Numbered from the stretch's first letter, positions 30,144 to 64,000 are shown. The stretch: DNA of 64,000 nt from an uncultured Muribaculaceae bacterium (GCA_964486215.1 CAZALI010000001.1:12837-76836), one strand, 5' to 3'. Notes: generated by a model from the letters alone, not told the origin. Translations and numbers: made by a program.

Positions 30144-30880
30144 AATCCTTTTATTTAACTGATCCGGGTATAGTTAGAGATCATAATGAAGATAGTGTTG
30201 TTATTGTCAGTAATAAAGATGCTTGTTTAATGGCTATTGCTGATGGTATGGGAGGACACAGGGCAGGTGAGGTTGCTTCATCTATAGCAATTAAGTATTT
30301 AGGAGAACATTTTAAAGAAACATATATAAATGTAAGTAAAGTAGATGGAGTAAAATGGATAAGAAATGCTTATGAAGAGATAAATAGTTTAATATTTCAA
30401 CATGAGATGAATCATCCTGAAAGTAAGGGTATGGGTACTACACTTGTGTTAGCTATTCTTACTAAAGATTATCTATTATTTGGTAATGTTGGTGATTCAT
30501 CTGGCTTTGTTATGAAAGATGATGTTCTACATAAAGTAACTTATGATCATACTTTGGTTAATTTACTTGTTAGTGCTGGAGAATTAACTAAAGAGGAAGC
30601 TAGTAATCATCCTAAGAAGAATGTTTTGATGAAAGCTCTTGGTGCTAGTAGTAAAGTAGATGTTGATGTTTTTGATTGTAATATGGATATTAATGAGATA
30701 TTACTATCTAGTGATGGACTTACTAATATGCTTAGTAAAGAACAAATACAAAATGTTTTGCTGGAAAAAGAAGATGCAGAATATAAAGTTAATAAATTAA
30801 TTGCGAAAGCAAATAATCGTGGGGGTACAGATAATATTTCGGTTGCTTATTTAGTTCGTGAGGTAGGTGACTTTGAGTGA
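30140..30880 (+). CDS. stp: PP2C Ser/Thr phosphatase.
   Basis: IADGMGGH and LSSDGLTN motifs. Confidence 0.85.
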   Translation: MKSFYLTDPGIVRDHNEDSVVIVSNKDACLMAIADGMGGHRAGEVASSIAIKYLGEHFKETYINVSKVDGVKWIRNAYEEINSLIFQHEMNHPESKGMGTTLVLAILTKDYLLFGNVGDSSGFVMKDDVLHKVTYDHTLVNLLVSAGELTKEEASNHPKKNVLMKALGASSKVDVDVFDCNMDINEILLSSDGLTNMLSKEQIQNVLLEKEDAEYKVNKLIAKANNRGGTDNISVAYLVREVGDFE

Positions 30881-46619: not shown

Positions 46620-46937
46620 TATCTTTTTTTGTAAAATAATATGTAAAGTACTTAAAAGTTTTAAAATAGTATTGACCTTATTCTTATAAAATGTTTTAAT
46701 GTAAGTGTTAGTACACAAGTTTTAGTTATTAACATAATAATTTATAATGATATTAATTATTTATTATGATTGTTAATACGTGCTTATCTGCTTGTCTACT
46801 AGTAGTTACAAATAAAGGAAAATATTATGTGGTAAGTGGCTAACGTAATATGACTAAGAGTTAGCTTCCATTGAACCGGGGTTAATAATGGTTATCAGTC
46901 AATTATTAATCTGACAAAAGTAGAGTTATCTTTTTGA

Positions 46938-46969
46938 GAATAGTGAGGTCATTTAACTATTCTTTTTTT
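46938..46969 (+). terminator. Intrinsic terminator inside the 1-kb gene-free region.
   Basis: GAATAGT / ACTATTC hairpin followed by T7. Confidence 0.5.
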
Positions 46970-46986
46970 ATATAAAAATTTGCACT

Positions 46987-47019
46987 AAAAAAGGATATTC
47001 ATTCAAATATCCTTTTTTT
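46987..47019. terminator. Bidirectional terminator.
   Basis: AAGGATAT / ATATCCTT hairpin flanked by A6 and T7. Confidence 0.5.
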
Positions 47020-47565
47020 CAATAAAGTTAAATAACGTTTCAAGAAACTTTTGATATTCAAATAATATTATAAATATTATTATAAATAACTAGGTAACTT
47101 GATAAATTAAATAACCGAGTTTCCCATTCACTTTATAACATTTGTATTTGGTATTATCAGTACCAAACGCGTGTTACCTTATCTTCGGGGAGTTTTCTTT
47201 CTCTTACTAAGTTACAGTATCTTGACTATAGTAAGTTATTGTTTAAAGTTTGTATTCCAAAACTTCCATAATTAAATGATAATTACTAATTTCTTCTTAT
47301 ATTTCTCGTATATATTAAATTAATAATACATATGGTACTACTATAAGCAAATACTCAGCAATTAATCAATTATTGAATAAATCAACAAAAGGTATAATTA
47401 CAATAGTATTAAACGAAATCGCAATCATGCCGATATCTTTTAGATCAAGATACATTATTAATTTAATATATAATTAGGTTATTGTCAATATTAATTTATG
47501 TTTTTAAAATGATTAGACACTTTATATGTAAAATGTGAAAAAATAGTAAAATTATGCAAAAAATA

Positions 47566-47593
47566 TTGTTAAATTAAATTTTCATGTTATAAT
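47566..47593 (+). promoter_or_regulatory. Sigma-A type promoter with an extended -10 element.
   Basis: TTGTTA, 16-nt spacer, TGTTATAAT. Confidence 0.5.
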
Positions 47594-47658
47594 TTTAATA
47601 GACATAGTAGGAAAGGTGGCATTGAAAATAGCAATATATAATTAAAATAGGTGGTTTG

Positions 47659-48351
47659 ATGAAGAATGAAGTAGAAGTTGATGCAAAAAAAGTATATAAG
47701 AAAAAGATGTTTGTAAAATTAGTTACAATTATCTTCTTAGCTTTACTTATATTACTTTCAATTATTTATTTATTTTTATATATTGTCTATGATGGTGGTA
47801 GGTTTACTATTAGTTTAGATAGGAATTTATCCAATAGAAAAAATGTCTATCTGTCGGAAGATGGTAAATTTGAAAATAAAAGATTCAAATTATCAGCTAA
47901 GACAATAGATTATATGGATAATATTTCTAAGGACTGGTTACCTGAGAATATCGATAAAGGTACTGGCAGCCATAATGGTAATAACTATATTGCTTATAGT
48001 TTCTATTTAGTAAATGCTGGTCATGAGACTGTCCATTATTGGTATGAGATAGATATTGACGATACCATAAAGAGAGTTGATGATGCTATTAGAATTATGA
48101 TAATTCAAAATGGCAAAAGAACAGTATATGCTAAAAGGAATCGTACTACTAAAAAGCCTGAGCCAGATACAGTGGCCTTTCGATCTAAGTCAGTTGTGGC
48201 TTTAAAGCAACGCAAGAAATTTAAACCGAAGAAGAAGGATCGATATACTATTGTCATATGGCTCGAGGGCAATGATCCAGAGTGCAAAAATGATTTAATT
48301 GGTGGAGAAATCAAGATGCATATGGACTTTACAGAAGAGCATATCAAATAA
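47659..48351 (+). CDS. Membrane-anchored protein of unknown function, the first gene of the TasA/SipW-like locus. An alternative TTG start lies at 47656.
   Basis: N-terminal TM segment VKLVTIIFLALLILLSIIYLFLYIV. Basic C-terminal region with locally raised GC content. Confidence 0.45.
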   Translation: MKNEVEVDAKKVYKKKMFVKLVTIIFLALLILLSIIYLFLYIVYDGGRFTISLDRNLSNRKNVYLSEDGKFENKRFKLSAKTIDYMDNISKDWLPENIDKGTGSHNGNNYIAYSFYLVNAGHETVHYWYEIDIDDTIKRVDDAIRIMIIQNGKRTVYAKRNRTTKKPEPDTVAFRSKSVVALKQRKKFKPKKKDRYTIVIWLEGNDPECKNDLIGGEIKMHMDFTEEHIK

Positions 48352-48369
48352 AAGAGGAGGAAAAGAGAT

Positions 48370-49404
48370 ATGGATAAGAAAACTCGTAATTACGAGAAAA
48401 AGAGAAAAAGAAAAATATTTTTATCAATTTTGATGATCTTGTTCGTAGGTATTATTTTAACTGCTAGTACTTACGCATGGTTCACAGCAAACCAAACTGT
48501 AACTGTTAATACTATTGATGTTAACGTAGCAGCTCAAAATGGTTTACTAATATCAACTGATGCTGATTCTTGGAAGACTGTTATTACTAATGAGGATATC
48601 ATAAATACTACTACTAGTGCATCTTCAAAATATAGCACTAATGAAAATATGATTCCATTTGGTACAGGTAGTCAAATTACACCAGTTTCTACTGTTGGTG
48701 AAATTGGTAGTGCTGGAAAACTAGCATTCTTTGCTGGTACACTTTCTAATAATGCCACTACTGATGCTTTAGAGTTAACTGCTAGTGCAGTAACTGAGGC
48801 AAAAGGAACTACTGGTGCTATGGTAGCTTTCGATTTATTCTTTAAAGTTACTGAAGAGTCACAAGTTTATTTAACTCCATCATCTAGCGTTATTAGTGCT
48901 GACCAAGACGATAGAGGATTAAAAAATGCTGCTCGTGTAGGTTGGTTAAGAGAAGGTAATGGTGATTTGAACCAAACTCTAGCTACATGGCAAGGATATC
49001 ATGCTACTAGTACTACAGATGGTGTAGCTAACCCAGCTAATAACTTAATTATTTGGGAACCTAATAGTGAAACTCATACTGCTGCTGGTACTGATAATGC
49101 AAGAAACTATGGTATTACTGATACTACACCAACTGCATTAACTTATGTTGGAGTAAAGGCAGCTATTACTAATGCTGTTCCAGTTGGTAGCCAAGATACT
49201 AACTATTTCGGTAGTGTAAAAGGATTATTTACTACAACTAATTCTACTGGAGTACCTGCTGGTACTAGATGGTTTAAATTAGCACCTGGTGTTACTAAAG
49301 TTAGATTCTATCTATGGATCGAAGGTCAAGACGTTGACTGTGAGAATGCAGCTTCAGGAGCTTCAATTTCTTACAACATGCAGTTCAGTTTATTGAACAC
49401 ATAG
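48370..49404 (+). CDS. TasA/camelysin-family protein with a SipW-cognate signal peptide.
   Basis: Basic N-terminus KKRKRK, a hydrophobic stretch, then STYAWFTANQ, which matches the GT(Y/W)A(F/W)F(S/T)D SipW-cognate class motif. 344 aa, T/A/G-rich. Terminator at 49418-49445. Confidence 0.55.
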   Translation: MDKKTRNYEKKRKRKIFLSILMILFVGIILTASTYAWFTANQTVTVNTIDVNVAAQNGLLISTDADSWKTVITNEDIINTTTSASSKYSTNENMIPFGTGSQITPVSTVGEIGSAGKLAFFAGTLSNNATTDALELTASAVTEAKGTTGAMVAFDLFFKVTEESQVYLTPSSSVISADQDDRGLKNAARVGWLREGNGDLNQTLATWQGYHATSTTDGVANPANNLIIWEPNSETHTAAGTDNARNYGITDTTPTALTYVGVKAAITNAVPVGSQDTNYFGSVKGLFTTTNSTGVPAGTRWFKLAPGVTKVRFYLWIEGQDVDCENAASGASISYNMQFSLLNT

Positions 49405-49459
49405 TTAGTTGGTTATGAAAAGGTCTTCCTTGAAGACCTTTTATTCTTAGAGGTGACAT

Positions 49460-49621
49460 ATGGATAAAGTAAATATTGAAGCATTAAATAGATTGAATAA
49501 TGAAGAGCTTTTATCATTGTATGATAGTATTAATGATCATATAAAATTTTTGAATGAAAATATAATTAAAGCTGAAGAGAAGAAAGAGGAAGAAGAGAGT
49601 AACGAGTCAAATGGAGAATGA
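49460..49621 (+). CDS. Small (53-aa) coiled-coil ORF, not in the supplied track. It overlaps the start of the next gene by 11 nt.
   Basis: RBS AGAGGTGA followed by ATG 49460. Translation MDKVNIEALNRLNNEELLSLYDSINDHIKFLNENIIKAEEKKEEEESNESNGE. Confidence 0.25.
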   Translation: MDKVNIEALNRLNNEELLSLYDSINDHIKFLNENIIKAEEKKEEEESNESNGE

Positions 49622-51269
49622 TGATAAGGTATTTATATTAAAAGAGATTGATATAGATAAAGAACATTTATCTTCTTTTCCTATGGAAACAGATTCTGGT
49701 ACTAAGAAAATAAAAGAAGAATTCCATAAAAAAGCTATTCAAGATAGAAATGCCTATGTTGATATGCAAATTAGGAAATTTACTGAGTATCGGAATGATG
49801 TTTTTAAAATGCTTAAAGCTAGAGCTCTTAGTATATTTCCAAATAATAGTATAAATGCATATGAAAACATTAATAATCACTTAGCTTTATTGCAAGATGC
49901 TGTAGTGGATACTAATAAATATGTTGATAACTACTATAAACTTGGATTCTCTTATCTAATAGAAGATATTGATGATAATGCTTCATTATTATTACTTAAT
50001 AAACACCTAAAAACATTTATTTCTAAATTTAATGAAATGGGTATAGAACTAAAAAAAGAAGATTTTAATTATACTATGTTTACGGCAAACTATATGAAAG
50101 AATTTTTAGATTCTTTATCTATGAATGATAATGATTTCTCTATGAAGATGAGGACTACTTTTGATTCTATATATTGGGAATGTCCTACTATTATTTATCA
50201 AATTAAGTTAAATTTACTTTATATTTTAGATAAATATAAGAAAGAATTAGACAAGTATTTAGCTGATAAAAATGCTAAATTATTAAATAATTTAGGCTGT
50301 GATAGGAATACTATTTTAGATGAGTATCTAAAGAAGAGATTAGAAGCAGGAGTTACTTTTGCGAGAGATGAATATAAGAATTTAGAAGTATTTTTGAATG
50401 GATCTAAGAATATAGAAGATTATTTACCTAGTAGTGAAATAAGAAGCAAAAATTATAATACTTATTGTAATGGTAATTTTGATGATTTAACTCCTGAAGA
50501 TAAGAATAAGTTTGATTTTGCTATGGCAGATTTACATAATACTTTAGTTGTTTTAAAGAAGTATTATACTTATGAACCTATTGTTAAGGACTTATTAAAG
50601 AAATATAAAGAAAAAGATAAAGTTAAGACTGAATTTGCTAATAACAATAAAGAAATAGATAAAGAAGATAAGAAGAGATTAGCTATTAATAAAGAATTTG
50701 CTAGAGCTAATGGAGAAGGATTCTTAGCTAAATATAATTCTGATAAGATTAAGAATGCTAAAGTTAAGATGAATGATGAAATTAGTAAGATTAAACAACT
50801 TTATCTTAAGAAATTTGGTTATGAAATTAGTATTAATTTAGATAAATATATAAAAGAATCTTCTACTTTGTATGATTTATTTATGGCATGTACTTCATCA
50901 TTTAATTATTTAAGTAATCAATTAAAGACTATTTATAAAGATGAGGAAGATTTTAATATTGAAAAAGAAGTTAATAATTTCTATAGATTTATCTTTAATC
51001 CTAGTAATGTATTCTTAAGGAAGAGTACTTGCTTTAGTGATTCTAAGATTGAAACTATTGTGAGTGATAAGTATCGTTTGTTGGGATTAAATATCAGTGA
51101 TAGTGATGTTAGTAAAGCATCTATTGATAGTACTATGGAAACCGTTGCTTATATCAATTTGATTCAAAACATTAATAAAGGAAGATTGTCTTTAGAAAAC
51201 ATTGCATTCATCTGCAATGTCAATAAAATAGAAGAATTAAAACCTGAAAAAGAAGCAGAAATGTTATAG
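49611..51269 (+). CDS. Hypothetical 552-aa protein, predicted cytoplasmic, with no recognised domain.
   Basis: K/E/D-rich ORF. Terminator GACCAC/GTGGTC at 51268-51293. Confidence 0.5.
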   Translation: MENDDKVFILKEIDIDKEHLSSFPMETDSGTKKIKEEFHKKAIQDRNAYVDMQIRKFTEYRNDVFKMLKARALSIFPNNSINAYENINNHLALLQDAVVDTNKYVDNYYKLGFSYLIEDIDDNASLLLLNKHLKTFISKFNEMGIELKKEDFNYTMFTANYMKEFLDSLSMNDNDFSMKMRTTFDSIYWECPTIIYQIKLNLLYILDKYKKELDKYLADKNAKLLNNLGCDRNTILDEYLKKRLEAGVTFARDEYKNLEVFLNGSKNIEDYLPSSEIRSKNYNTYCNGNFDDLTPEDKNKFDFAMADLHNTLVVLKKYYTYEPIVKDLLKKYKEKDKVKTEFANNNKEIDKEDKKRLAINKEFARANGEGFLAKYNSDKIKNAKVKMNDEISKIKQLYLKKFGYEISINLDKYIKESSTLYDLFMACTSSFNYLSNQLKTIYKDEEDFNIEKEVNNFYRFIFNPSNVFLRKSTCFSDSKIETIVSDKYRLLGLNISDSDVSKASIDSTMETVAYINLIQNINKGRLSLENIAFICNVNKIEELKPEKEAEML

Positions 51270-51358
51270 ACCACAAAAGTGGTCTTTTTTTTATGAATTT
51301 TTATTGGTTATTTACTTGTATTATGGTATAATGTTAATAGAATAATTGGAGTGTGCAT

Positions 51359-52618
51359 ATGAAGAGTGTGAAGAAAATTTTAAAGTATATAGCGTATGCA
51401 TTTTTATCATTTTTGATATTACTATGCGTATATACTTTTGTAGTAACAGATATTTTAAAGAAAGACCATGTAAATGTGTTTGGATATACATATTTTGTGG
51501 TAGCTAGCGGTTCTATGTCAGGTACTATTGAAGTTAATGATATTATCTTTGTTAAGCTTACTAAGAATGTCAAAGTAGATGATATTATTTCTTATAAAAA
51601 TAGTTCTGGAGAAATAATAACTCACCGTATTGTTGATAAGAGTGGTAATAGACTTATTACTAAAGGTGATGCCAATAATAGTCAAGATGATCCAATAAGT
51701 AAAAATGATGTACTTGGCAAGATTATTTGGATATTATCACCTAAAGTAATACTTGAATTTATCGCAGTATGCTTAATTGTATTTATTGGACTTGCTCTTA
51801 TTAATTTTGATAGGATATTTAAACGATATGTTGTTAAGAATGATAATACAGAGACAAATGATTTTGATAGAGAAGTTTTACCACAAGAAGTATTCTCTAG
51901 TCCAAAAGATAGAAAAGATTATAAACATAGTGGTTTAACTGTTACTATTCCATTGAAAGAGATAGATAATATCCGTAAGATACAGGATGAAGAGAAACAA
52001 GAAGATGAAGATGGAGTAGAGATATTAACAGAAGAAGAGGTATTAGATTTAGATAGTAATTCTATTGTTACTATCAGTAATACACAGAAAGAGAAAGAAA
52101 AAGAAATAGTTGATTTAGTTACTAATTTACTTAGAGTTAAGAATGATGAGTTAGCAACTTCTAGAATTAATAAGAAATGGTTACTTAAATATCAATTTAT
52201 TTATAAAATATCTAATATCATATTACTTGGTGATACTAAGAGTTTATTTGAATCTGTTGAACATCCTTCGTTTAAGGAAGTATATGATTATGACTTAGAG
52301 AAGATAGGCTTATATGAGAATTTACGAAATAAAATCTATGAAATGCCTATATATGTTTTCTTAAAAATATTATTTATAGCTATTTTATATAATGATGATG
52401 CTTTCTTTGACGGAGTATTCAAGATTATGAAATATAAAATTATGATTGATAAGAATAATCATTTTAGAACTATAAAGAATGATAATTATTCAAGAAGACA
52501 ATTAAAAGGATTAATTACATTTATGGAAAAGATTTCTAAACAATATGATAATAAGCATGTATTTGAATTAGATAAGATAGAGAGAATGACTAAGATTAAA
52601 AATTACGTTAACGATTAG
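51359..52618 (+). CDS. SipW-type (archaeal/eukaryotic-type) signal peptidase I fused to a ~270-aa C-terminal extension.
   Basis: N-terminal TM segment, then VVASGSMSGTIEVNDIIFVKL (Ser motif SGSM), ITHRIVDK (His) and ITKGDANNSQDDP (GDxN...D). A second TM segment (KIIWILSPKVILEFIAVCLIVFIGLALINF) is followed by a long additional domain. Promoter TGGTATAAT at about 51323-51331. Confidence 0.6.
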   Translation: MKSVKKILKYIAYAFLSFLILLCVYTFVVTDILKKDHVNVFGYTYFVVASGSMSGTIEVNDIIFVKLTKNVKVDDIISYKNSSGEIITHRIVDKSGNRLITKGDANNSQDDPISKNDVLGKIIWILSPKVILEFIAVCLIVFIGLALINFDRIFKRYVVKNDNTETNDFDREVLPQEVFSSPKDRKDYKHSGLTVTIPLKEIDNIRKIQDEEKQEDEDGVEILTEEEVLDLDSNSIVTISNTQKEKEKEIVDLVTNLLRVKNDELATSRINKKWLLKYQFIYKISNIILLGDTKSLFESVEHPSFKEVYDYDLEKIGLYENLRNKIYEMPIYVFLKILFIAILYNDDAFFDGVFKIMKYKIMIDKNNHFRTIKNDNYSRRQLKGLITFMEKISKQYDNKHVFELDKIERMTKIKNYVND

Positions 52619-52627
52619 GAGAAGAAT

Positions 52628-55600
52628 ATGAAACTTACTAAAAGAAAACTTACACATATAATATTTTCATTGTTCATGTTAATGATACTTTCTTTTAGTA
52701 TTGTTTCTTTTTTTTCTAGAAGTACTTTAAGTGATATTAATTATGTTAAATGGGATGGAAAAGAAGTAGCTACTTCTTTTGCTGGAGGTAATGGTACCAA
52801 AGAGAATCCATATAAAATTAATAATGGCGGACAATTAATGTACTTTAAGAAGATGGTAGAAGAAGAGAATAATTTTCTTGATAAATACTATGTTCTTGGA
52901 GCAAACATTGATTTAGATGATCATGAAATTACTCCTATTGGTACTGATACTAAGTACTTTAGTGGCTCTTTAGATGGAAAAGGATATACTATTACTAATA
53001 TTAATATCAAAGAAGGCAAAGAAGATAATCAAATAAACTATTATGGTTTATTTAATAAAATTAAAGGTACTATTAATAATCTTAATATAGATGAAATTAC
53101 TATTAATCCTGAAAGTGAAGATCCTGTTATTATAGGATCTTTAGCTGGTAAAATAGAAGAAGAATCTAGTATTAAGAATATTTCTATTCATAAGAGTAAT
53201 ATTTATTTAACTAATACTACTAATGATAAGTCTAATAATATAGCTTTATTTAGTGGAATAATAGAAGAGAAGAGTACTATTACTAATATTAGTGTATTTG
53301 GTAAATTTTATTCTCCTTATAGTGATAATGTTTCTATTATTAGTAATAAATTAGATAGTAATATTAAAAACGCTATTATGAAAGTTGAATATGAAGATGG
53401 TATTAATGATTTAGCTACTTTTGGTAATATAGGTGATGAAGTAGAAACTACTAATATATTTAATTTTATTAATAAAGATAGAATTGTTATTAAGAATGAA
53501 ACATATACTGCTAGTGAAGTAGTTAATGTATTTAATGATGAAATACTTGATAATTACTATTGGGATTATGATGAAGATTTTTCTATTTATGTAAGAGATA
53601 ATAAAATAGATAATACTCCTAAAGTTAGAAGTTTTAGTTTTACTCCTAGTGGTACTATAGCATTACATGATAGTGGAGTATCTACTGCGGATAAGACTGT
53701 TTATATTAATGATTTAACTAGTGATTATAACTACTACATGGGTCTTAATTATACTACTACTAGTAATGGAAATGTTCCTACTGGATCTAGTAATAATACT
53801 TATACTGATAGTAATTTAGTAGCAGTATATATGGCTTATAGAGGAGAAAGCATTAACGATGATGGAAAAATTGGATATGTATCTCTTAATGAACAAATAT
53901 CTGATTTTATATATTATAAGTATTATGTAATAGAAAATGGTTATATAACTATTCCTCTAATAGATAATCCATATGCTGATAGACCTAATGATATGGCTTT
54001 TAATGGATGGATAACTGATTATCCTAATGCAGTTGTTAGTTATGATGCTGATACTTATACTAGATATGTTAAGATACCGGCAACAACTGGTCCTATATCA
54101 ATTACTATGTATGCTACATGGACAGAAGCTACTGTTGTTAACGCTAGTGTTAGTAGTAATAATTTAAGTACTACTGGACTTAAACCTATTAGTATGCAAC
54201 CAATTATTACTAGGACTCCTAATTATAATGGTTATACTTTCCCAACTCTATATACAAGAGGTTCTGTAACTAGTGAAGCTAATAGAAATGGAGCTGTTCC
54301 TTATCCTGCTGGAGCAGTTGATGATAGAGGAAATAGTTTAAGTAACTCTATGTGTGAACCTATTGTTACTGGTAGTGGCTGGAATAGGAGATATAGTTCA
54401 CAAACATGTTATTACTATATGCAAGCTGATACTACTAATATTGATCCAAATGAGTCTTATTATCAAATAGGTAATAATGGTAGCATGACTTCTTATACAT
54501 TACCTACACCTACTGGATATGATTATGAAAGAGTTATAGATGTTGGTGATAGTGTAGCTGGTTTCTATAAGAGACATACGGAGGCTGGTAGTTTAGTTGG
54601 TTATTATAATAATAGAGGAGTTCAATATACTTCTGGTAGTTGTAGTAGTAATTGTGAGTATTATGAGTTAGTACAGTTTGATGAGAATAATGTCATGCAA
54701 GAGACGGATTCAGAAACACTTTATTATTACTTAGTTACTCGTGATACTAATATTGCCTTTTTAAATAGTAATATTCAAGGATTTACTAATAGTGTTCCAG
54801 TTACGGTTACAGGTATTAATAATGGTGTTGATCATAGTAACTATGAGATTCAAGTTAATACGCGTAGTATAAGAGCTGGAGCTGATTTAAGAGTTGAATG
54901 GGCTCTTGTCAATAGAAACAGTTATTCTACGAATACTAGTGGTCCATCTGATAGTAATACTAATAATATTTATGGTGAGTATCATAACTTGAAAATTGGT
55001 AGAGGAATAGAAATTGAAACTACAACAACGACAGAATGGCAATATATTGATGGTAGATATCAACAAGTTCAAGTTACAAGAAAATATTTGACTGCTACTT
55101 CTGTTGTTGGAGGAAGCTCTAGTGCTGCAGGTGGTAGTGGTAGTCCTGAAAAATATAATCTAATCGTAGAATCAGGCTATTATAATGTTTTGAGTGCTGT
55201 TAGTACAACTAGTTCTTCATCTACTTATTATACAAATGCTGTTGCGACATATGGTTGTGATTTTGATAGAGTAAATAATGCTGATAACTCTAAACTAGGA
55301 GTTTATTATACAGCTGCTTCTAGTTGGGGCGGTAGCATTTATAGTTCTTCTAGTTCTACTGATACAGAGTTATTCTCAACACAAATTGTTAAGAGTGGAA
55401 CATTTGGTGAAGTTGAGAGTGAAGCTGCATCTGGTATATATGCTGGAGGATTAAATGGTGGTACTATTTATGCTCCTGCTAGACTTATTATTGAAGGTGG
55501 AGATTTATTTAATGTTAATGGTGGACCATTAATTAGTTCTAATAGAAAAACTAAGAATATGATTTATATTAATATGAAAGGCGGAAATGCTGACTTTATA

Positions 55601-58600
55601 TTTGGTGGTGCTGCCTTATCACAAACTTATGGTAATCGTATTATCAATGTTACTGGTGGACAAGTTAATTACTCTGTATTTGGAGGATCTAATGGTGTCG
55701 AAGGTGGTAACGGTGATGGTACTTTGGATGGAGATTCTTTCGTATATGTTGGTGGTAATGCCAAGATTGGAGACGACTCTATTACTGATACTAAGTGGGG
55801 AGTTGAATCAGGCTCTGTATTTGGTATAGGTAATGGTAATTCTTCATATGATACAATTGGTTCTACTAATAATTCTAATGTTATTATAGCGGGTTCTGCT
55901 ACTATAAAGACTAATGTCTATGGTGGTGGTAACTATGGTGCTGTTGGTGTTAAAGGAAATACATCTACAACTACTACTAATGTTAAGATAATCGGTGGAG
56001 ATGTTAAAGGTAGTGTCTATGGTGGAGGTAATAATGCTGGATCTGGTACTTCTTCATATACTTCTACAGTAAACATTACTATGGATGGTGGTACTGTAGA
56101 AAAGAATGTCTTTGGTGGAAGTAGAACTAAAGGTATTATTTATGGTTCTACTAACGTTAATATAAATCAAGGTGTTGTTGAAAAAGACGTATACGGTGGC
56201 GGTGAAGGTGGTTATGAAGATAGTAATACTCCTGGTACATACGTTGCTCGTGACGTTAATGTAGTTATTGGTGATACTAATACAACTACTAGTAATTTAA
56301 CTATTAAAGGTAGTGTCTATGGTGGTAGTGCTTATGGTTCTGTAAATGGAAGTTCTAATAATGCATCTGCTACAGCTACATATAAGACAAATGTTACAGT
56401 CAATGGTGGAAAAATTGAAACCAATGTCTATGGTGGAGGTAAAGGTGATTCTACTCATACTCCAAAAGAATTTGGTGATGTTACTGTTACTATCGAAGGC
56501 GGTAGTATTGGTGACGTATATGGCGGTAATGATCAAGCTGGTTCTCCACAAAGAGGCGATGTTGTTAACTTAAATGGTGGAACAATTGCCAATGGATTTG
56601 GTGGAGGTAATAATACTGGGCAAACAACTACTAATATTAATCTAGCTGGTACAACTGTTACTGGTAACTTATATGGTGGTTCTAATAATGGTGGTATTGT
56701 TACTACTTCTAATGTTCATGTTACAAGTGGTTCTGTTACTAACGTATATGGTGGTAATAACTTAAATGGTTCAACGACAACAACTAATGTCATTATTGAT
56801 GGTGGTACTTTCTCAGGTGATGTTTATGGTGGAGGTAACCAAGCTAATTCTAGTACTTCAAATGTCACAATAAATGCTAGTACAAATCACAATGTCTATG
56901 GTGGAGGTAACCAAGCAGGTGTTACTACTCAAACTAATGTAAATATAAATGCTGGTACAATAGTTGATGTATTTGGTGGATCTAATAGTTCTGGAGAAAT
57001 CAATAATACTCATGTTATTGTATCTGGTACTGGTGCCAAGAACATTCAAAATGTCTATGGTGGTAATAATTTAGGTGGTACTACTGATAATGCTATATCT
57101 GTTATTGAAGTAAGCAGTGGTACAATTGGAAACATCTATGGTGGAGGTAATAAAGTTGGACTTGATACTTCTAATGTAACAGTTACAGGTGGAACAATTA
57201 CTTCTGTATATGGTGGTTCTAATACTAGCGGAGATCTTAATGAATCTAATGTAACTATTGGATCTACTACTAGTCAAGTTACGGTACAAGATGTCTATGG
57301 TGGTAATAACTTAGGTGGTGTTACAGATGATGCCAATATCGTTGTTACAAATGCTACTGTAAATAACTTATACGGTGGAGGTAATCAAGCTGCCGTTGGT
57401 TCTACACATGTAGAGGTAGTTGATAGTACTATTCAGAATATCTATGGTGGAGGTAACCAAGCTGGTGTTACTGGTAATACATATTTGGATGTTGATAACT
57501 CTACTGTTTCTACTAACATTTATGGTGGAGGTAATCAAGGAGCAGTAGGTGGAAATACTGAAGTTTATATTACTGATGGTACAATTGGTGGTAGTTGTTA
57601 TGCCGGTGGTAATGGTTCTACAGCTATCGTAAGTGGTAATACTCTTATTACTGTTGATGGTGATACTGTTGTTGGTAGTGCATCATCTACTGGAACAGAG
57701 GGTAGCGTCTTCGGTGGTGGTAATGCTGCTGCTACTGGTAGTTCATCTACTAATAATAGTGTTGCTACGGTAAATATTGTTGGCGGACATATTTATGGTA
57801 ACGTATATGGTGGTGCTAATACTTCAGTTGTTTATGGCGAAACTCATACAAATATTGGTACTAATGCTGTAAATGTATCTGGTTTAGACGAAGCTGATTT
57901 AATAATTGAAGGAACTGTCTTCGGTGGTGGTGAAGCTAATGCTTCTGGCAGTGATAGTTACGACTTCTCATTCATTTCTGTCACAAGAGGAATTGATGTT
58001 AATATAGATGGTTTGAATTATCTTACTCATGGAAATAGATTTGAACTTAATGGATCTATCTTTGGTTCAGGTAATGCTTCATCTTCTGCTGGTACTAGTG
58101 AAGTTTATATTAGAAATCTAGGTACGAGAACTAATCCTAGTTCAAATGTATCAATACAGAGAGCAGATAAAGTCGTGATTGATAATAGTGTTATTGAACT
58201 TTCTGGTACTGTTGATACTACAAATGATTATTCAAATATTAAATATTCATTGAACAGAATTGAAGACTTTATTATTAAAAATAATACGGTACTTCTATTA
58301 AAAGAAAATGCCAACCTTCTACAATCATTTAGATCTATGGTTGGTACTGATGGTAACGAAGTATTAGCAACTGTTAATATAAATGATGATACACAAACAG
58401 TTACTAAGAATGTTGACAATAGACTTTATATGTTAGCTGATAAGAACTTGAATGTTGCTACTAACCAGGATGCTACTGCTTATGGTGAAGTTAAAGGTAT
58501 GACATTCCTTGGAATGTATACTATGGGTACTACTGGTAGTAGGAGGTATGGTGTCTATAGTGATACATTTGATTATGGTTCAGCATCTGATGCTGGTGAT

Positions 58601-60718
58601 ATGATCATTGGTGGTACAAGTGTTAAAGGTTCACATCTCGTAAATCATGATATAACTAAAGATGGTTTCTATTCTAACTATCTAGATGAAGAGAATAACT
58701 ATTCTGAAGTTAGAGTAGCTTACGTAGAACCTCAACCACCAGCTTCAAACTTCTATATATGGTCTATTGGTGAAGAGACAATTAGTTATGAATTTACAAT
58801 GACGGCTTCTAAGTATGGTTCATTAGGTACATATACACTTTCTATGTCAGAATTTGCTGATGGTAATACAATCTTCAATGTCAGTGGATTTAATACTGAA
58901 GGTTTAGCAAGTGGTGTATCATTAATTGATTCTGATACTGTACCTAAGATTGCTCATACACAAGCAGAAGCTAATAGTGTCTTTGGTTTATCAATGAAAG
59001 CTGAGACACGTGAGTGGACTAGTTATGGTACAACAAAACTATTAAGTCGTGATAATGGTGATACGACTGGTACAGATAGTTATAAAACAGACTCTCAGTC
59101 TATAGCACCAACAATGATGTTCTATTTCTACCATGCTAAGAATATTGCTCTTACAGCAGAACTTGGAACAGCAGTATTAACACTACAAGCTATGGTACCA
59201 ATAAATGAGATAGAGTATGATATCCAGTTAATTACTATTACGATTAACTTAGAGGCACAAGAATACGATGACGAAGATGCTTACGATGCTTCAATATCTT
59301 ACGATAAAAAGTATGAGATGCCTTCAGCTACACCAGTTAATATTACTAATAGGAGCCAATTCACAGCATATTATTCTATGATTGCTATGCCTGAAAGCTT
59401 TAGTGCTTTCTATGGTAGAGATGGAGACTATTATCATGCTTTAGTTACAGATGCAGCTTTACCTGTTGGAACTGAGATTACAATGATTGATAATAGTATA
59501 GAGGGTCATCCTGAAGAATATTATTTAACAATAGATCAGGCTCGGTATAATGCATCGACAGCTCAACTTAGTGCTGATAGTGAAATTAGTTATAAACTAT
59601 CGGAATTCATAAAGATGGATAGTACTAGTACTACTAATAAATATAGTGACGTTCAAATGAATCAAGTTTACTTTGACGATGATTATAATCTAGTTATGGA
59701 AGAGTTCTTATTCATCTTTGACTTTAAGAACACGACAGTTTCTGATGGAGTATTAAATAAATATATGTTATTTGAATTACGTAATGGTGAGGATAGAACA
59801 ATGTATCACGTTGTTACTCCACGTCGACAATTTATGTATTACAATACATATGCAGCATCTAACTCAGTACTTGTTGGTTCAATTACTCCTGAACGTTACT
59901 TGTATCAAGATATTGATAGTACAACGCCAATTTCAGCAGAAGTTGACTACGACGAAACTTCTGGACGTGAGTCAATTATTGATACTAACTATGAGAGTAG
60001 TTCTATGGGACTTAACTTAGCTATTCTAGACCACAGTGGTAACCAAGTAAGTTCTAGTATGCTTATTGGTACATCAGTTACTATTAATAATACTGAGTAC
60101 TATGCTGATAGCGATGGTGTATTTAGAATAAAACTAGCTGGAAAAGTATCTAATATTAATGGTACGATGACATTGAAAACAGATAAGAGCCTGCCAGTAG
60201 GTGAATATACATTCAGATTTACTTTGTTTGCTTCTAACGATGGTCTTCATAATTCTGATCCAGATAGAGCAACAGTATATAATAGAACAGTAACGGTTGT
60301 TGGTAGTAATAACTCTATTGTAGTTACTGGTGATGATAAAAACAAAGTAGTAGACGGAGTAACTTCACTTAATGAATTAGGAGCTAAATACAATAATTAT
60401 AGTATTAAGTATGTATCAGCTTTGTCTAATCCTAACTTTAGAGTTTCTCTATATAAACGTGATATTACTGATAGCGTTACTACTAATTATACTGAAGTAC
60501 CATTTAATTCATTGTTTACTGATACATTAACTGATGCGACTGGTGGAACTGCTTATGAAAAAATTGTTCCTACAGGTACTTCACCGTTTAATGTTAGATA
60601 TAATTTTGCTGATAATTTAACTTCTGGAACTTATAAAATAGTATTTAAATTATATGATGGTAATCAATTAGTAGATAGTGATAATGAATTTATTATTGTT
60701 AAGAAGAGAACTCCTTAA
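52628..60718 (+). CDS. Giant (2696-aa) secreted or cell-surface protein with a central β-solenoid-like tandem repeat region.
   Basis: RBS AGGAGAAG. N-terminal signal anchor. The central region contains more than 30 repeats of about 25 aa with the motif x(V/I)(Y/F)GG(G/S)N followed by N(V/I)x(V/I)xxG(T/S)I. Confidence 0.8.
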   Translation: MKLTKRKLTHIIFSLFMLMILSFSIVSFFSRSTLSDINYVKWDGKEVATSFAGGNGTKENPYKINNGGQLMYFKKMVEEENNFLDKYYVLGANIDLDDHEITPIGTDTKYFSGSLDGKGYTITNINIKEGKEDNQINYYGLFNKIKGTINNLNIDEITINPESEDPVIIGSLAGKIEEESSIKNISIHKSNIYLTNTTNDKSNNIALFSGIIEEKSTITNISVFGKFYSPYSDNVSIISNKLDSNIKNAIMKVEYEDGINDLATFGNIGDEVETTNIFNFINKDRIVIKNETYTASEVVNVFNDEILDNYYWDYDEDFSIYVRDNKIDNTPKVRSFSFTPSGTIALHDSGVSTADKTVYINDLTSDYNYYMGLNYTTTSNGNVPTGSSNNTYTDSNLVAVYMAYRGESINDDGKIGYVSLNEQISDFIYYKYYVIENGYITIPLIDNPYADRPNDMAFNGWITDYPNAVVSYDADTYTRYVKIPATTGPISITMYATWTEATVVNASVSSNNLSTTGLKPISMQPIITRTPNYNGYTFPTLYTRGSVTSEANRNGAVPYPAGAVDDRGNSLSNSMCEPIVTGSGWNRRYSSQTCYYYMQADTTNIDPNESYYQIGNNGSMTSYTLPTPTGYDYERVIDVGDSVAGFYKRHTEAGSLVGYYNNRGVQYTSGSCSSNCEYYELVQFDENNVMQETDSETLYYYLVTRDTNIAFLNSNIQGFTNSVPVTVTGINNGVDHSNYEIQVNTRSIRAGADLRVEWALVNRNSYSTNTSGPSDSNTNNIYGEYHNLKIGRGIEIETTTTTEWQYIDGRYQQVQVTRKYLTATSVVGGSSSAAGGSGSPEKYNLIVESGYYNVLSAVSTTSSSSTYYTNAVATYGCDFDRVNNADNSKLGVYYTAASSWGGSIYSSSSSTDTELFSTQIVKSGTFGEVESEAASGIYAGGLNGGTIYAPARLIIEGGDLFNVNGGPLISSNRKTKNMIYINMKGGNADFIFGGAALSQTYGNRIINVTGGQVNYSVFGGSNGVEGGNGDGTLDGDSFVYVGGNAKIGDDSITDTKWGVESGSVFGIGNGNSSYDTIGSTNNSNVIIAGSATIKTNVYGGGNYGAVGVKGNTSTTTTNVKIIGGDVKGSVYGGGNNAGSGTSSYTSTVNITMDGGTVEKNVFGGSRTKGIIYGSTNVNINQGVVEKDVYGGGEGGYEDSNTPGTYVARDVNVVIGDTNTTTSNLTIKGSVYGGSAYGSVNGSSNNASATATYKTNVTVNGGKIETNVYGGGKGDSTHTPKEFGDVTVTIEGGSIGDVYGGNDQAGSPQRGDVVNLNGGTIANGFGGGNNTGQTTTNINLAGTTVTGNLYGGSNNGGIVTTSNVHVTSGSVTNVYGGNNLNGSTTTTNVIIDGGTFSGDVYGGGNQANSSTSNVTINASTNHNVYGGGNQAGVTTQTNVNINAGTIVDVFGGSNSSGEINNTHVIVSGTGAKNIQNVYGGNNLGGTTDNAISVIEVSSGTIGNIYGGGNKVGLDTSNVTVTGGTITSVYGGSNTSGDLNESNVTIGSTTSQVTVQDVYGGNNLGGVTDDANIVVTNATVNNLYGGGNQAAVGSTHVEVVDSTIQNIYGGGNQAGVTGNTYLDVDNSTVSTNIYGGGNQGAVGGNTEVYITDGTIGGSCYAGGNGSTAIVSGNTLITVDGDTVVGSASSTGTEGSVFGGGNAAATGSSSTNNSVATVNIVGGHIYGNVYGGANTSVVYGETHTNIGTNAVNVSGLDEADLIIEGTVFGGGEANASGSDSYDFSFISVTRGIDVNIDGLNYLTHGNRFELNGSIFGSGNASSSAGTSEVYIRNLGTRTNPSSNVSIQRADKVVIDNSVIELSGTVDTTNDYSNIKYSLNRIEDFIIKNNTVLLLKENANLLQSFRSMVGTDGNEVLATVNINDDTQTVTKNVDNRLYMLADKNLNVATNQDATAYGEVKGMTFLGMYTMGTTGSRRYGVYSDTFDYGSASDAGDMIIGGTSVKGSHLVNHDITKDGFYSNYLDEENNYSEVRVAYVEPQPPASNFYIWSIGEETISYEFTMTASKYGSLGTYTLSMSEFADGNTIFNVSGFNTEGLASGVSLIDSDTVPKIAHTQAEANSVFGLSMKAETREWTSYGTTKLLSRDNGDTTGTDSYKTDSQSIAPTMMFYFYHAKNIALTAELGTAVLTLQAMVPINEIEYDIQLITITINLEAQEYDDEDAYDASISYDKKYEMPSATPVNITNRSQFTAYYSMIAMPESFSAFYGRDGDYYHALVTDAALPVGTEITMIDNSIEGHPEEYYLTIDQARYNASTAQLSADSEISYKLSEFIKMDSTSTTNKYSDVQMNQVYFDDDYNLVMEEFLFIFDFKNTTVSDGVLNKYMLFELRNGEDRTMYHVVTPRRQFMYYNTYAASNSVLVGSITPERYLYQDIDSTTPISAEVDYDETSGRESIIDTNYESSSMGLNLAILDHSGNQVSSSMLIGTSVTINNTEYYADSDGVFRIKLAGKVSNINGTMTLKTDKSLPVGEYTFRFTLFASNDGLHNSDPDRATVYNRTVTVVGSNNSIVVTGDDKNKVVDGVTSLNELGAKYNNYSIKYVSALSNPNFRVSLYKRDITDSVTTNYTEVPFNSLFTDTLTDATGGTAYEKIVPTGTSPFNVRYNFADNLTSGTYKIVFKLYDGNQLVDSDNEFIIVKKRTP
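55400..58100 (+). repeat. Tandem degenerate repeats (period ~72-84 nt) encoding the YGG(G/S)N β-solenoid units.
   Basis: Near-identical blocks (a/g)tctatggtgg(a/t)(g/a)gtaa recur at about 56018, 56318, 56427, 56895, 57052, 57135, 57293, 57441 and 57521. Confidence 0.7.
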
Positions 60719-60770
60719 TTAATAATTGAAATTAAATTTTTAATATGATAAAATGAGAGTGGTGATTTAA

Positions 60771-61448
60771 ATGATAAAAAGAATTTTTGGGGTAATATGG
60801 GATATATTAGAAATTTTAATAATAATTTATGTTATATTCATAACAGCTTGTATATTATTTAGAAACGATTATGGATTTACACAGTTTGGTGATTATACTT
60901 TAGCTAGTCTTGGTAAAAATGATGCTAAATATATCAAGAATACTAATAATGGCGATCTATTAATAGTTAAGAAGAGTAAAAATATAGCTGTTGGTGATTA
61001 TATTTATTACTATGCTGTTATTGATGAAAGCTATGTAATTAGAACAGGTGTTGTACAAGGAGTTACTAAAGATGATTATAATTCTTTATACAATATAAAG
61101 ACTAAGATTTCTAATGATAAGACTGTTAAGATAAGCGTTAATCATAAACGTGTTCTTGGCAAAGCTGCTAATAATTATGCTAAGTTAGGAGATATTCTTA
61201 AATTCTTAGAGACAAGACTTGGTTTCTTAGTATTTGTACTTCTTCCTATTATGCTTGTATTTGTATATCAAATATATATATTCGTAGTTTTATTAAATTA
61301 TGAAAAGAAGGAAACTTTGAATAAAATTATTAGTACTAATAATAAAGAAGCTTTAAATAAACCAGAAGTAAAAGAAGAAAAACCTGTAGAAAAAGAAGTT
61401 CCAAAAGAAGAAGAGAAAAAAGATGATGAAGATATAGAAGTTTTATAA
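60771..61448 (+). CDS. Bitopic membrane protein, possibly a catalytically degenerate SipW-like paralogue.
   Basis: Architecture is TM segment, β-domain, TM segment, acidic tail, as in the SipW-like gene. Short local similarity FGDYT...NGDLLIVKK compared with FGYTY...NDIIFVKL, but no SGSM Ser or HR His. Confidence 0.35.
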   Translation: MIKRIFGVIWDILEILIIIYVIFITACILFRNDYGFTQFGDYTLASLGKNDAKYIKNTNNGDLLIVKKSKNIAVGDYIYYYAVIDESYVIRTGVVQGVTKDDYNSLYNIKTKISNDKTVKISVNHKRVLGKAANNYAKLGDILKFLETRLGFLVFVLLPIMLVFVYQIYIFVVLLNYEKKETLNKIISTNNKEALNKPEVKEEKPVEKEVPKEEEKKDDEDIEVL

Positions 61449-61499
61449 CTCTATATCTTTTTTTTTGTGATATAATTTTTCATAGAAAAGGAGGCTTAT

Positions 61500-62105
61500 A
61501 TGGATTTTAGTGAATTAAAAGAAAAAGCTAAGAAAAGTTTGGAAGGAAAATGGTCAGAGACTATAAAGTTAATGTTGGCTTATACGATATTAACAGGAAT
61601 ATTCTATGGACTTGGAAATACTACTGATAATACTACAGCTAAATCTCTTTATTCTCTAGTTGCTTTTGTTATTGTTTGCTTTATTACTTTTGGCTATTGT
61701 AGTTATTTCTTGAAAATATCACGTGATGAAAAGGTAGAGTGGAGAGAATTATTCAGTAAGACTAATTTGGCATTTGATTGTTTTATCATTTCTCTTGTCA
61801 CAGCGTTAGCTGTATTCGTTGGAATGATGCTATTAGTAGTTCCTGGTATTATAGTTGCTATTATGTTTTCACAAGCTTATTTTATAAAACTTGATAATCC
61901 TGATATGAAAGCAATCGATACTCTTTCAGAAAGTGCTAGAATTATTAAAGGTCATAAGATGGATTATTTCTTACTTGGTCTTAGTTTCTTAGGATGGCTC
62001 TTACTTGGATTATTTACTTTTGGAATTTTATACTTCTGGTTAACTCCATACATGAGTGTTACTATGTGTAATTTCTACAATAAAATAAAAGATGAAAAAA
62101 AATAG
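61500..62105 (+). CDS. DUF975 family integral membrane protein.
   Basis: N-terminal segment MDFSELKEKAKKSLEGKWSETIKL, typical of DUF975, and four TM helices. Confidence 0.45.
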   Translation: MDFSELKEKAKKSLEGKWSETIKLMLAYTILTGIFYGLGNTTDNTTAKSLYSLVAFVIVCFITFGYCSYFLKISRDEKVEWRELFSKTNLAFDCFIISLVTALAVFVGMMLLVVPGIIVAIMFSQAYFIKLDNPDMKAIDTLSESARIIKGHKMDYFLLGLSFLGWLLLGLFTFGILYFWLTPYMSVTMCNFYNKIKDEKK

Positions 62106-62179
62106 ACTAAAAAGTCTATTTTTTCTTGGTAAAAATAAATTAAAATGTTATAATGGAATTATAATAAGGAGACGATATC

Positions 62180-63913
62180 ATGAAGAAGTATTTGTTGATT
62201 GCTTTGATTAGTTTTTTACTTATACCAACACAAGTTTTTGCTGTTGATAAAGCTAGTAAAGTTATTAGTGGTTTAAGTGATAGTAACTTAGTTAATGATG
62301 GAACTAGTGATAATAATAAACGTTATGTAGGAATGAATCCTAATAACTATGTTTTATTTAATGGAGAGACTCCTGGAGTTGCTACTGAAAAATATAGAAT
62401 TTATTTAACAAATACTTTGTTGCCAAAGGATGATGAACATGATGGTTATCCTACTGAAGCAGATTGTACGTCTGATGTTAATAGTTATGTAGGGCATGTT
62501 ATGGATTATGGTGCTTCATATACTTGTACTCTAAATACTGATACTAGTGAGTATGAATTAAGAACGACAGGCTATTTAAGTAATGATTATATAAATACAA
62601 ATGGTGGTTATGATGATACTAGTTTATCTTCTTGCCAAGGTTTTATAAGTAATGTTGGAATGCCTGATACTGCGGCTTGTACGGAAAATCACATTATGTT
62701 CAAAGGCTGGAGAATAGTTGGAGTATTTAATGTTAATGGTGTTAAGAGAGTTAAACTTGTAAGAAACGAATCTATTGGTCTTTATTCTTGGGATAGTACT
62801 CCTAGTGATGTTAATGCTGGATTTGGTAGAAATGAATGGAGTGAATCAGGAATACAGAGATTACTTAATCCTGGATATACAGGAATAGCTAATAATAGTT
62901 TATATTGGGATAGTGGAAGTGGTTTCTGTTATACCAATGCAGGAGCATCTGCTAATCCTTGTGATTTTGCTGATTCTGGCTTGAAAGACAGCGGCAAAGC
63001 ATTTATAGATGACGCTTTATGGCATACTAGTTTTGTTAATACTGCTGCTAGTTCTGTTGCTTTATATGAAGCTGAAAAGAGTGGTAATACTACTATTACT
63101 CCTCCAACAGATTCACCAGCAACTGATGGTATAACAAGACATGCTACTTGGACTGGTAAAGTAGGACTTCTATCTGCTAGTGATTTAGCTTTAGCTAGTC
63201 TTAATTGTAATGCTAGTTTAATAGATAGTGGTGTTTCTGGATGCGCTAATAACTGGTTATTTGATACAACTAAGCCTACACTTACAATGACTTCTAGTGT
63301 TAAAGGAGTTTCTAAAGTACTTATTAATGATACTACTAATATATTTACTACTACTGATGCATCTAATCCTGGTGAAGTTTACCCAGCTGTATTCTTATCA
63401 GATGATACATATATTATCAGTGGTACTGGTAGTGTTAATGATCCATTTATTTTAGGTAAAGGTAAATCAGTAGATGTAGATCTTATCTTAGGTAATAATT
63501 ATAGTTTAAGTAATTATATAACTGATATTAGTGATTTCTCTTCACTTAACTGGGAAATTGATGATCCAACTGTTGTAGGAGTAAGTGGTGCTTCTCTAAC
63601 ACCTAAGAAAGTTGGAGTTACTAAGATGAGTACATTTACTAATGGTTTATATTATGTAGTAAATGTTAACGTAAGAAAAGTACAACCTAGAATAGATCCA
63701 GATGCATCTTCTAATACTAGTGGTTCTTCTAGTAGTAGTGTTAGTTCTGGAACAAGCAATTCATCTAATGAACTAGTAAATCCAAAGACTAGTTATTTAA
63801 ATAAAATTAATAATGTTAAGAATAATTTAAGAGGAGATATAATAACATTTGTAATATTCTTAGTAGTATCTGCATTCTCTTTATTCGCAGCATTTAAATA
63901 TAAGAAAAATTAA
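62180..63913 (+). CDS. Secreted surface protein with a Big_2 (bacterial Ig-like) domain and a C-terminal NPKTS sorting-signal-like tail.
   Basis: Sec signal peptide LLIPTQVFA|VD. Big_2-like segment LILGNNYSLSNYITDISDFSSLNWEIDDPTVVGVSGASLTPKKVGVT. C-terminal tail NPKTS...IITFVIFLVVSAFSLFAAFKYKKN. Terminator at 63913-63936. Confidence 0.5.
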   Translation: MKKYLLIALISFLLIPTQVFAVDKASKVISGLSDSNLVNDGTSDNNKRYVGMNPNNYVLFNGETPGVATEKYRIYLTNTLLPKDDEHDGYPTEADCTSDVNSYVGHVMDYGASYTCTLNTDTSEYELRTTGYLSNDYINTNGGYDDTSLSSCQGFISNVGMPDTAACTENHIMFKGWRIVGVFNVNGVKRVKLVRNESIGLYSWDSTPSDVNAGFGRNEWSESGIQRLLNPGYTGIANNSLYWDSGSGFCYTNAGASANPCDFADSGLKDSGKAFIDDALWHTSFVNTAASSVALYEAEKSGNTTITPPTDSPATDGITRHATWTGKVGLLSASDLALASLNCNASLIDSGVSGCANNWLFDTTKPTLTMTSSVKGVSKVLINDTTNIFTTTDASNPGEVYPAVFLSDDTYIISGTGSVNDPFILGKGKSVDVDLILGNNYSLSNYITDISDFSSLNWEIDDPTVVGVSGASLTPKKVGVTKMSTFTNGLYYVVNVNVRKVQPRIDPDASSNTSGSSSSSVSSGTSNSSNELVNPKTSYLNKINNVKNNLRGDIITFVIFLVVSAFSLFAAFKYKKN

Positions 63914-64000
63914 GGCAATTTATTGCCTCTTTTTTATGGCAATTTATTCTCTTTTTTTGTATGAATTTGTATTTAAGTATGTTATAATTTAAGAGTAGGA

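Follow-up and report, generated by a model that had tools for sequence, protein, structure and literature searches.

The DNA stretch examined here—64,000 nucleotides (nt) deposited for an uncultured Muribaculaceae bacterium (GCA_964486215.1, CAZALI010000001.1:12837-76836), referred to as the window, with all positions counted from its first letter—carries nine plus-strand open reading frames (ORFs; 47656–63913) in which a gene for a signal peptidase of the SipW type lies among genes for a TasA-like secreted protein and a giant repeat protein. What such a locus builds, and which of its genes belong to it, is the question that it raises. A first-pass annotation, made from the sequence alone, had proposed an uncharacterised fibre or adhesin assembly module, and this remains the best reading. 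Judged by the comparisons described below, the conserved module is a set of seven genes, A-B-S-C-D-E-F (47656–61448), and on balance it is probably a cell-surface assembly module particular to its lineage, constructed on the SipW/TasA principle. The ORF sizes and order in that annotation (231, 344, 552, 421, 2696, 225, 201, and 577 amino acids (aa)) agreed with those found, the 53-aa S alone having been missed.

The unit is delimited by its conservation. A scan of GTDB with a profile of D served as the species census and found D in 42 species, all of them uncultured gut Bacilli, with host record titles including “Mycoplasma sp. CAG:877,” “uncultured Tenericutes UMGS...,” “Bacilli bacterium,” and “Mycoplasmatota.” A, B, C, and D are collinear in about 38 of the 42 species, and E and F follow wherever the contig reaches far enough. 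Distant contigs with a D C-terminal domain only 31–35% identical (L046–L049) keep the layout 234/350/46/535/D/~2,770/180 aa. Two further loci are rearranged: L052 (1–11497) reads B-E-S-C and is followed 3–5 kb downstream by genes for a sortase and a T2SSE-type ATPase, and L053 (6573–21316) reads A-B′-B-S-C-E(short)-x-x-F-B″-D′, with three B paralogues (358–514 aa) and a D-like peptidase of 720 aa that has a different C-terminal part. Read from these gene orders, A, B, S, C, D, E, and F are shown to travel together in evolution, even when reordered. Furthermore, scpA/scpB lie a few kb from the module, both in the window and in at least nine further loci with an intact module (11 loci beside scpAB when the degenerate L019 and L030 are counted), and nrdDG stand next to it in the closest relatives. 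Because this neighbourhood and the collinearity are kept across species, the module is taken to be vertically inherited within its lineage, and its earlier description as an accessory locus was abandoned.

Of the two candidate fibre proteins, B (48370–49404, 344 aa) is predicted to be secreted and beta-rich, with a SipW-cognate signal peptide, and is the candidate major subunit. It had been annotated as TasA/camelysin-like with such a signal; the signal held, whereas the family assignment did not. The score of B against the SipW-cognate signal model TIGR04088 is marginal (20.0 bits, cut-off 19), with matches at E ≤ 1 in 43 of 67 B-family members (best 9.6e-5). In contrast, neither A nor B matched Peptidase_M73 (PF12389; TasA/camelysin) at E ≤ 0.1, and the NCBIfam matches of the 67 B and 33 A homologues included no TasA, CalY, or TapA model; B as a member of the TasA/camelysin family was rejected for want of a family hidden Markov model (HMM) or PDB sequence match. 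An AlphaFold2 model of B, built from the 67 homologues, reached a mean predicted local distance difference test score (pLDDT) of 82.9 and a predicted template modelling score of 0.80. A Foldseek search of PDB with this model gave nothing significant, the best match being no better than E 0.03; the top-ranked structural neighbours are donor-strand filaments, and the fold similarity is weak. Conservation in B peaks at two places, namely the post-signal strand (0.87; the segment after the hydrophobic core, residues 31–60) and the C-terminal EGQDVDCEN motif (0.91). On the basis of the predicted model, these peaks, and the motif common to A, B was accepted as having a remote TasA-superfamily-like fold and as a plausible fibre subunit.

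A (47656–48351, 231 aa) consists of an N-terminal transmembrane (TM) segment and an ectodomain of ~185 aa, and is the most conserved component, with a mean column identity of 76%. Its C-terminal motif, W-x-E-G-x-D-x-x-C-x-N, is the one also present in B, to which the similarity between the two proteins is limited; in distant loci, the A and B HMMs cross-hit reciprocally. None of the 33 A homologues matched TIGR04088, and A did not match the TapA model (TIGR04087) or any PDB sequence. Since A has a TM segment, keeps just the C-terminal strand motif of B, and is the best-conserved component, it is probably an anchor or nucleator.

The peptidase D (51353–52618, 421 aa) scored 64.6 bits against TIGR02228 (sigpep_I_arch; cut-off 51.85) but only 56.5 bits against NF046067, the equivalog model of Bacillus SipW (cut-off 190); on these scores, D is of the SipW peptidase type and is not a SipW orthologue. 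Among the model searches suggested in the first-pass annotation, TIGR02228 was thus positive and TIGR04088 marginally so, and Peptidase_M73 was negative. Ser54 (in GSMSG), His91 (in THR), Asp106, and Asp112 are invariant across 34 D homologues, and by analogy with SipW and SEC11, S54 and H91 would represent a catalytic site of the Ser-His, not the Ser-Lys, type. A D-family profile matched human SEC11A/C in PDB (E 0.0025). By its residues and profile matches, D is shown to be an intact signal peptidase of the endoplasmic reticulum (ER)/archaeal type.

The large extra domain that had been noted in this peptidase was likewise found, and is clade-restricted. The peptidase part occupies residues 1–135, flanked by TM helices, and is followed by an acidic linker predicted to be disordered (161–242) and by a predicted seven-helix, all-alpha domain (245–421; pLDDT 70–90), which is more conserved than the catalytic domain among the 34 homologues. 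A search of 1.84 billion representative proteins with this C-terminal region retrieved just 48 clusters, all of which carry the D-type domain C-terminally in proteins of ~340–610 residues, and an N-terminal SipW/archaeal-type peptidase was present in all ten of the distant carriers tested. The D peptidase is therefore, to judge from these architectures, always fused to a C-terminal domain of restricted distribution.

F (60771–61448, 225 aa) had been flagged as a possible dead-peptidase paralogue, and the family comparison bears this out. The F and D families aligned in hhalign with a probability of 95.6% (E 1.1e-8) across the TM and peptidase domains, and no Ser, His, or Lys is invariant in the ectodomain of 30 F homologues. 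At the level of sequence, F is shown to be a catalytically dead paralogue of D, a pseudo-signal-peptidase that has lost both the Ser and the His. It has two TM segments and an acidic tail ending in D-[IV]-E-[LV]-L. On the predicted cytoplasmic side, the two proteins resemble each other in a short acidic motif—in the linker of D as [DE]x[IV]E[IV]L-E-x-E-[DE]-[VI]-[IL]-D (51953–52000, residues ~201–216) and at the C-terminus of F (61428–61445)—which may be a docking motif common to both.

The giant protein E (52628–60718, 2,696 aa) is tightly linked to D, from which it is separated by 9 nt, and in most loci it comes directly after D. At the N-terminus, a single TM segment and a conserved domain (WDG...GNGT..NPY) precede ~25 tandem units of 24–33 residues (residues ~990–1810; VYGGGN-x-G-x-T-x-V-x-I-x-GG-x-V), a pattern that supports the proposed beta-solenoid, and a conserved C-terminal region of ~900 residues follows the repeats. 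E gave no Pfam or PDB sequence match, nor did four of its segments against Pfam at E ≤ 10. In 34 orthologues it is conserved along its whole length, most strongly at residues 900–2400, and is for this reason not a hypervariable adhesin. The E of L053 (1,211 aa) keeps the N- and C-terminal domains and has lost the solenoid, suggesting that the solenoid serves to space two functional ends apart. With respect to the N-terminus, none of 30 E sequences matched TIGR04088, and two matched the TapA model TIGR04087 at a non-significant E of ~0.09. That E shares the signal or donor strand of B was also rejected: an HMM of B residues 12–58 scored E no higher than the plain TM helix of F and barely above shuffled controls, so that a likeness in “FTA” seen by eye was dropped as evidence.

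The remaining two members are a small and a soluble protein, respectively. S (49460–49621, 53 aa) is acidic and helical, its 3′ end overlapping the start of C, and is characterised by the motif L-x-x-L-Y-x-x-I-x-x-H-I-x-[FY]-L. It is present in every locus inspected, having been called as a gene of 43–48 aa in the distant loci L046–L049 and L053 and of 30 aa in L052. C (49611–51269, 552 aa) is predicted to be cytoplasmic; it has no TM segment, and neither the protein nor its profile matched Pfam, NCBIfam, or PDB. Its 74 homologues, none of them named, occur only with this module, and C adjoins S in every arrangement seen. A relationship between C and the D C-terminal domain was ruled out (hhalign probability 0.3%). 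C is 100% identical to a protein from a “Bacilli bacterium” metagenome-assembled genome in NCBI (P0310).

Beyond these gene identities, the cleavage, the polymerisation, and all of the interactions in the following mechanism are inferred. A and B would be exported through Sec, and D would cut the signal peptide of B, probably after Ala36, exposing the conserved N-terminal strand WFTAN-TVTV. B would then polymerise by insertion of this strand into the next subunit, as in the donor-strand assembly of TasA fibres (PMC9674648) and of archaeal threads, bundling pili, and cannulae (PMC9245690, PMC9715654, PMC12518558). A would act as the membrane-proximal anchor or nucleator, in a role like that of TapA (PMC10151520). 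F, as a non-catalytic partner of D, may retain or present subunits instead of cleaving them, comparable to SipA in Streptococcus pyogenes pili. E would be a membrane-inserted giant with a ~25-coil solenoid stalk between its conserved terminal domains; it would be made together with D and F, and would be exposed next to the fibre or attached to it as an adhesive element. S, C, and the D C-terminal domain, in what is the least supported step, could form a cytoplasmic sub-complex positioning or regulating assembly.

In its fullest form, this mechanism describes a surface organelle in which the active/inactive pair of SipW-type proteins makes up a membrane assembly site, is coupled through the D C-terminal domain to S and C, and polymerises B, a divergent TasA-superfamily protein, on the anchor A, with E co-displayed or incorporated as a stalk or tip adhesin—that is, a chaperone-free donor-strand fibre controlled from inside the cell. 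This fuller version is offered tentatively, as possible rather than probable.

Several points weigh against an assembly module of this kind. The TIGR04088 score of B lies 1 bit above the cut-off, and B has no sequence match to Peptidase_M73/TasA, camelysin, or any PDB chain. The N-termini of E fail both TIGR04088 and the HMM of the B N-terminus, so that these sequences tie E neither to D as a substrate nor to the fibre, and the N-terminus of A is likewise at TM background with both. A 20-residue hydrophobic helix inside the C-terminal domain of D (residues 327–346, window 52331–52390, IYEMPIYVFLKILFIAILYN) may cross the membrane as a third TM segment; the topology would then be different, with the last 75 residues outside the cell. 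In the degenerate loci L019 and L030, D is kept beside scpAB whereas A, B, S, C, and E are locally gone, and housekeeping genes occupy the position of E; F was detected only in L019. D may consequently have other substrates, or the structural genes may have moved. Finally, the cleavage and polymerisation of B and the parts assigned to A, E, F, S, and C have the standing of proposals.

Some of the same observations favour secretion by a dedicated peptidase of non-polymeric envelope proteins—B and perhaps A and E, as monomeric adhesins, wall-associated coat proteins, or enzymes—with no fibre being formed. The fold similarity of B to filament subunits is weak and unaccompanied by a TasA-family HMM match, B is ~100 residues larger than TasA, D persists in L019 and L030 without the structural genes, and E is conserved along its full length, as would be a structural envelope protein. 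On the other hand, SipW-type peptidases characterised beside their substrates belong to fibre systems (PMC9674648, PMC7395162). The top structural neighbours of B, moreover, are specifically donor-strand filaments, and B is most conserved at the post-cleavage strand and at the C-terminal strand motif that it has in common with A. Secretion without a fibre is rather unlikely, though it is the main alternative to the assembly of B.

Given that TasA was discovered in association with spores, a structure belonging to the spore surface or to sporulation might also be considered; it is very improbable here. RF39-type orders are predicted spore formers (PMC10868615), and L047 has a YabG-like (Peptidase_U57) fragment a few kb upstream. 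Against this, the conserved promoter described below is of the housekeeping sigma-A type (TTGnnA-17-TATAAT) and not of the sigma-E, -K, -F, or -G type, and within the window neither the module nor its neighbours include sporulation genes. The least probable reading of all, a horizontally acquired, strain-variable adhesin island, would accommodate the abrupt shift in gene content after a 1-kb non-coding stretch, the variability of the flanking genes G and H, and the slightly higher G+C content inside E (0.34–0.37 versus ~0.27), but was rejected on synteny, as the scpAB setting (in the intact loci and in L019 and L030 alike), the nrdDG setting, and the order of the genes in the 42 species and in more distant contigs are preserved. 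In addition, there was no sign of an integrase, a transposase, or flanking repeats, and the rise in G+C coincides with the Gly-rich repeats of E.

Taken as an assembly module on the SipW/TasA principle, the locus resembles the tapA-sipW-tasA operon of Bacillus subtilis (sipW-tasA-calY in B. cereus), in which a dedicated ER/archaeal-type peptidase likewise stands beside secreted substrates with SipW-cognate signals (PMC9674648, PMC10151520) and a minor anchor-like protein accompanies a major beta-sandwich subunit. The likeness to this operon that had been drawn in the first-pass annotation holds for the logic of peptidase and substrate, but does not extend to S, C, and the D C-terminal domain, which have no counterpart there. 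Unlike in Bacillus, A and B match neither Peptidase_M73 nor TapA models, D falls short of the SipW model (56.5 versus 190 bits) and has an extension of ~270 residues including the all-alpha domain, and the module adds F, the cytoplasmic S and C, and the 2,696-aa E, none with a Bacillus equivalent. The sipW-bsaA matrix-pilus operon of Clostridium perfringens, an anaerobic Firmicute, similarly combines SipW with a TasA-like polymerising matrix protein (PMC7395162, PMC11580942). However, BsaA is a recognised TasA homologue without sequence similarity to B, and the operon includes a two-component regulator and contains no pseudo-peptidase, giant solenoid protein, or cytoplasmic domain fused to the peptidase.

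Archaeal filaments—Saci_0406 threads, the Pyrobaculum bundling pili AbpA/AbpB, and Pyrodictium cannulae—are also matured by ER/archaeal-type peptidases and polymerise through N-terminal donor strands, and the ABP operon encodes, besides the pilin, a larger TapA-like protein with a proposed role as fibre starter and adhesin (PMC9245690). They belong to a different domain of life, use a generic peptidase rather than a dedicated fused one (PMC9245690), have no detectable sequence similarity to the module, and possess no equivalents of S, C, or F. For F, the nearest functional precedent is SipA of the S. pyogenes pili (SipA/LepA), an inactive signal-peptidase homologue required for pilus polymerisation (PMC4049620). 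SipA, in contrast to F, serves sortase-assembled, covalently linked pili and is of the bacterial P-type lineage; F, which has two TM segments, derives from the ER/archaeal lineage and stands beside an active paralogue.

No description of the module was found in the literature on RF39 together with TasA or in that on SipW-cognate signals (TIGR04088). New beyond the known logic of SipW and its cognate substrates are the obligate fusion of a clade-specific domain to the peptidase, the paired pseudo-peptidase, S and C, and the invariant linkage to a conserved solenoid protein of ~2,700 residues. The hosts are abundant, uncultured gut bacteria with reduced genomes, and a module that takes up ~14 kb of a small genome and is preserved whole in dozens of these species is likely to be central to their lifestyle. 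If the assembly module is what it appears to be, it would extend the TasA/donor-strand superfamily to a branch that sequence models miss, and would provide a second, independent case in which fibre assembly has recruited an inactive paralogue of a signal peptidase. The domain fused to the peptidase and its two cytoplasmic partners, all without known relatives, would then hint at regulated inside-out control of a kind of fibre that has been taken to assemble by itself.

The transcription signals of the module were read on the plus strand. Upstream of A, a sigma-70-like promoter (47566–47593; TTGTTA-16 nt-TGnTATAAT) had been proposed earlier. A consensus scan by itself is no better than chance (103 sites found versus 113 expected); conservation between species, on the other hand, bears the promoter out. 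In 27 of the 53 loci fetched for comparison, the -35/-10 pair and a leader motif (ATAGTAGGRRAGG, 47604–47616) lie 45–60 nt 5′ of A, and since the proteins of the species concerned are just 45–70% identical, this conservation supports the assignment. The leader (47594–47620), directly 3′ of the -10 box, contains ATAGTAGGAAAGGTGGC (motif at 47604–47616/47620), and 34 nt here are 91–94% identical among distant species with equally diverged proteins. The motif stands upstream of A in the 27 loci, with 28 matches in all because L004 has a second, unrelated copy, and occurs once in the window. It holds a strong Shine-Dalgarno (SD)-like sequence ~40 nt before the real start and ribosome-binding site of A. 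In highly expressed Bacillus genes, similar 5′ elements called STAB-SD stabilise the mRNA, and the leader is possibly a stabiliser of this type or an operator.

Farther downstream, a hairpin after B (49418–49446; 11-bp GC-rich stem and U-rich tract, fold -16.9 kcal/mol, z -2.9) is a possible terminator or attenuator, which a simple terminator scan did not call, and an intrinsic terminator follows C (51268–51293; 7-bp stem at 51268–51285, then T8). A putative promoter of D-E-F (51304–51332; TTGGTT-17 nt-TATAAT with an extended-10 TG) was read from the sequence and lies below the scan threshold. The hairpin, the terminator, and the possible promoter before D suggest A-B(-S-C) and D-E-F as the likely transcription units, and the module, as read from these signals, is two or three units rather than the compact single block first described. 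That A and B are abundantly expressed structural genes would fit the conserved sigma-A-type promoter, together with the SD-like leader and the post-B hairpin.

The junction between C and D is also the exact site of unrelated insertions in relatives. A variable cassette of two genes, coding for a protein of 137–166 aa and one of 479–512 aa whose middle is of low complexity and which ends in a TM segment and an acidic tail, is found at this junction in one lineage and upstream of A, beside a serpin gene, in another (L006, 8060–9902; L002, 5340–7386); it is absent from the window.

Two genes that follow F had been counted with the block. G (61500–62105, 201 aa) is indeed a DUF975 protein (PF06161; 130.1 bits, cut-off 34.8, E 1.6e-37), but neither it nor H (62180–63913, 577 aa) was ever found beside the module in related loci, the closest relatives included. 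Comparison with related genomes, suggested in the first-pass annotation as a check, therefore upheld the unit A–F and left the DUF975 protein and the 577-aa protein outside it. The Big_2 assignment of H failed, with no match even at E ≤ 10, and a PDB sequence search gave nothing useful. H ends in a TM segment and KYKKN, and its sole LPXTG-like string, NPKTS, lies ~20 residues before this segment; the sorting signal that had been suggested is thus, by its sequence, non-canonical, and G and H are best described as local neighbours outside the module.

On the upstream side, nrdD and nrdG end at 46619, and the gene-free stretch of 1 kb reported before A is confirmed (46620–47655; 1,036 bp, no ORF >40 aa). 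A match to the Rfam PGK RNA motif on the minus strand (47147–47243) is sub-threshold (42.9 bits, gathering cut-off 50.8, E 0.001) and did not recur in the two closest relatives (L003, L043), to whose intergenic DNA parts of the gap are 68–75% identical; a riboswitch or non-coding RNA was therefore rejected and the match taken as chance. The window, with a G+C content of ~27%, also encodes a sortase (22536–23492) and a Ser/Thr kinase with three PASTA domains (30877–32640), on account of which the mycoplasma-related host probably has a peptidoglycan wall. Near the other end of the window, a 438-aa protein (1139–2455) strongly matches the mTERF domain (E 1.5e-48), a domain familiar mainly from organellar transcription termination factors and regarded as uncommon in bacteria.

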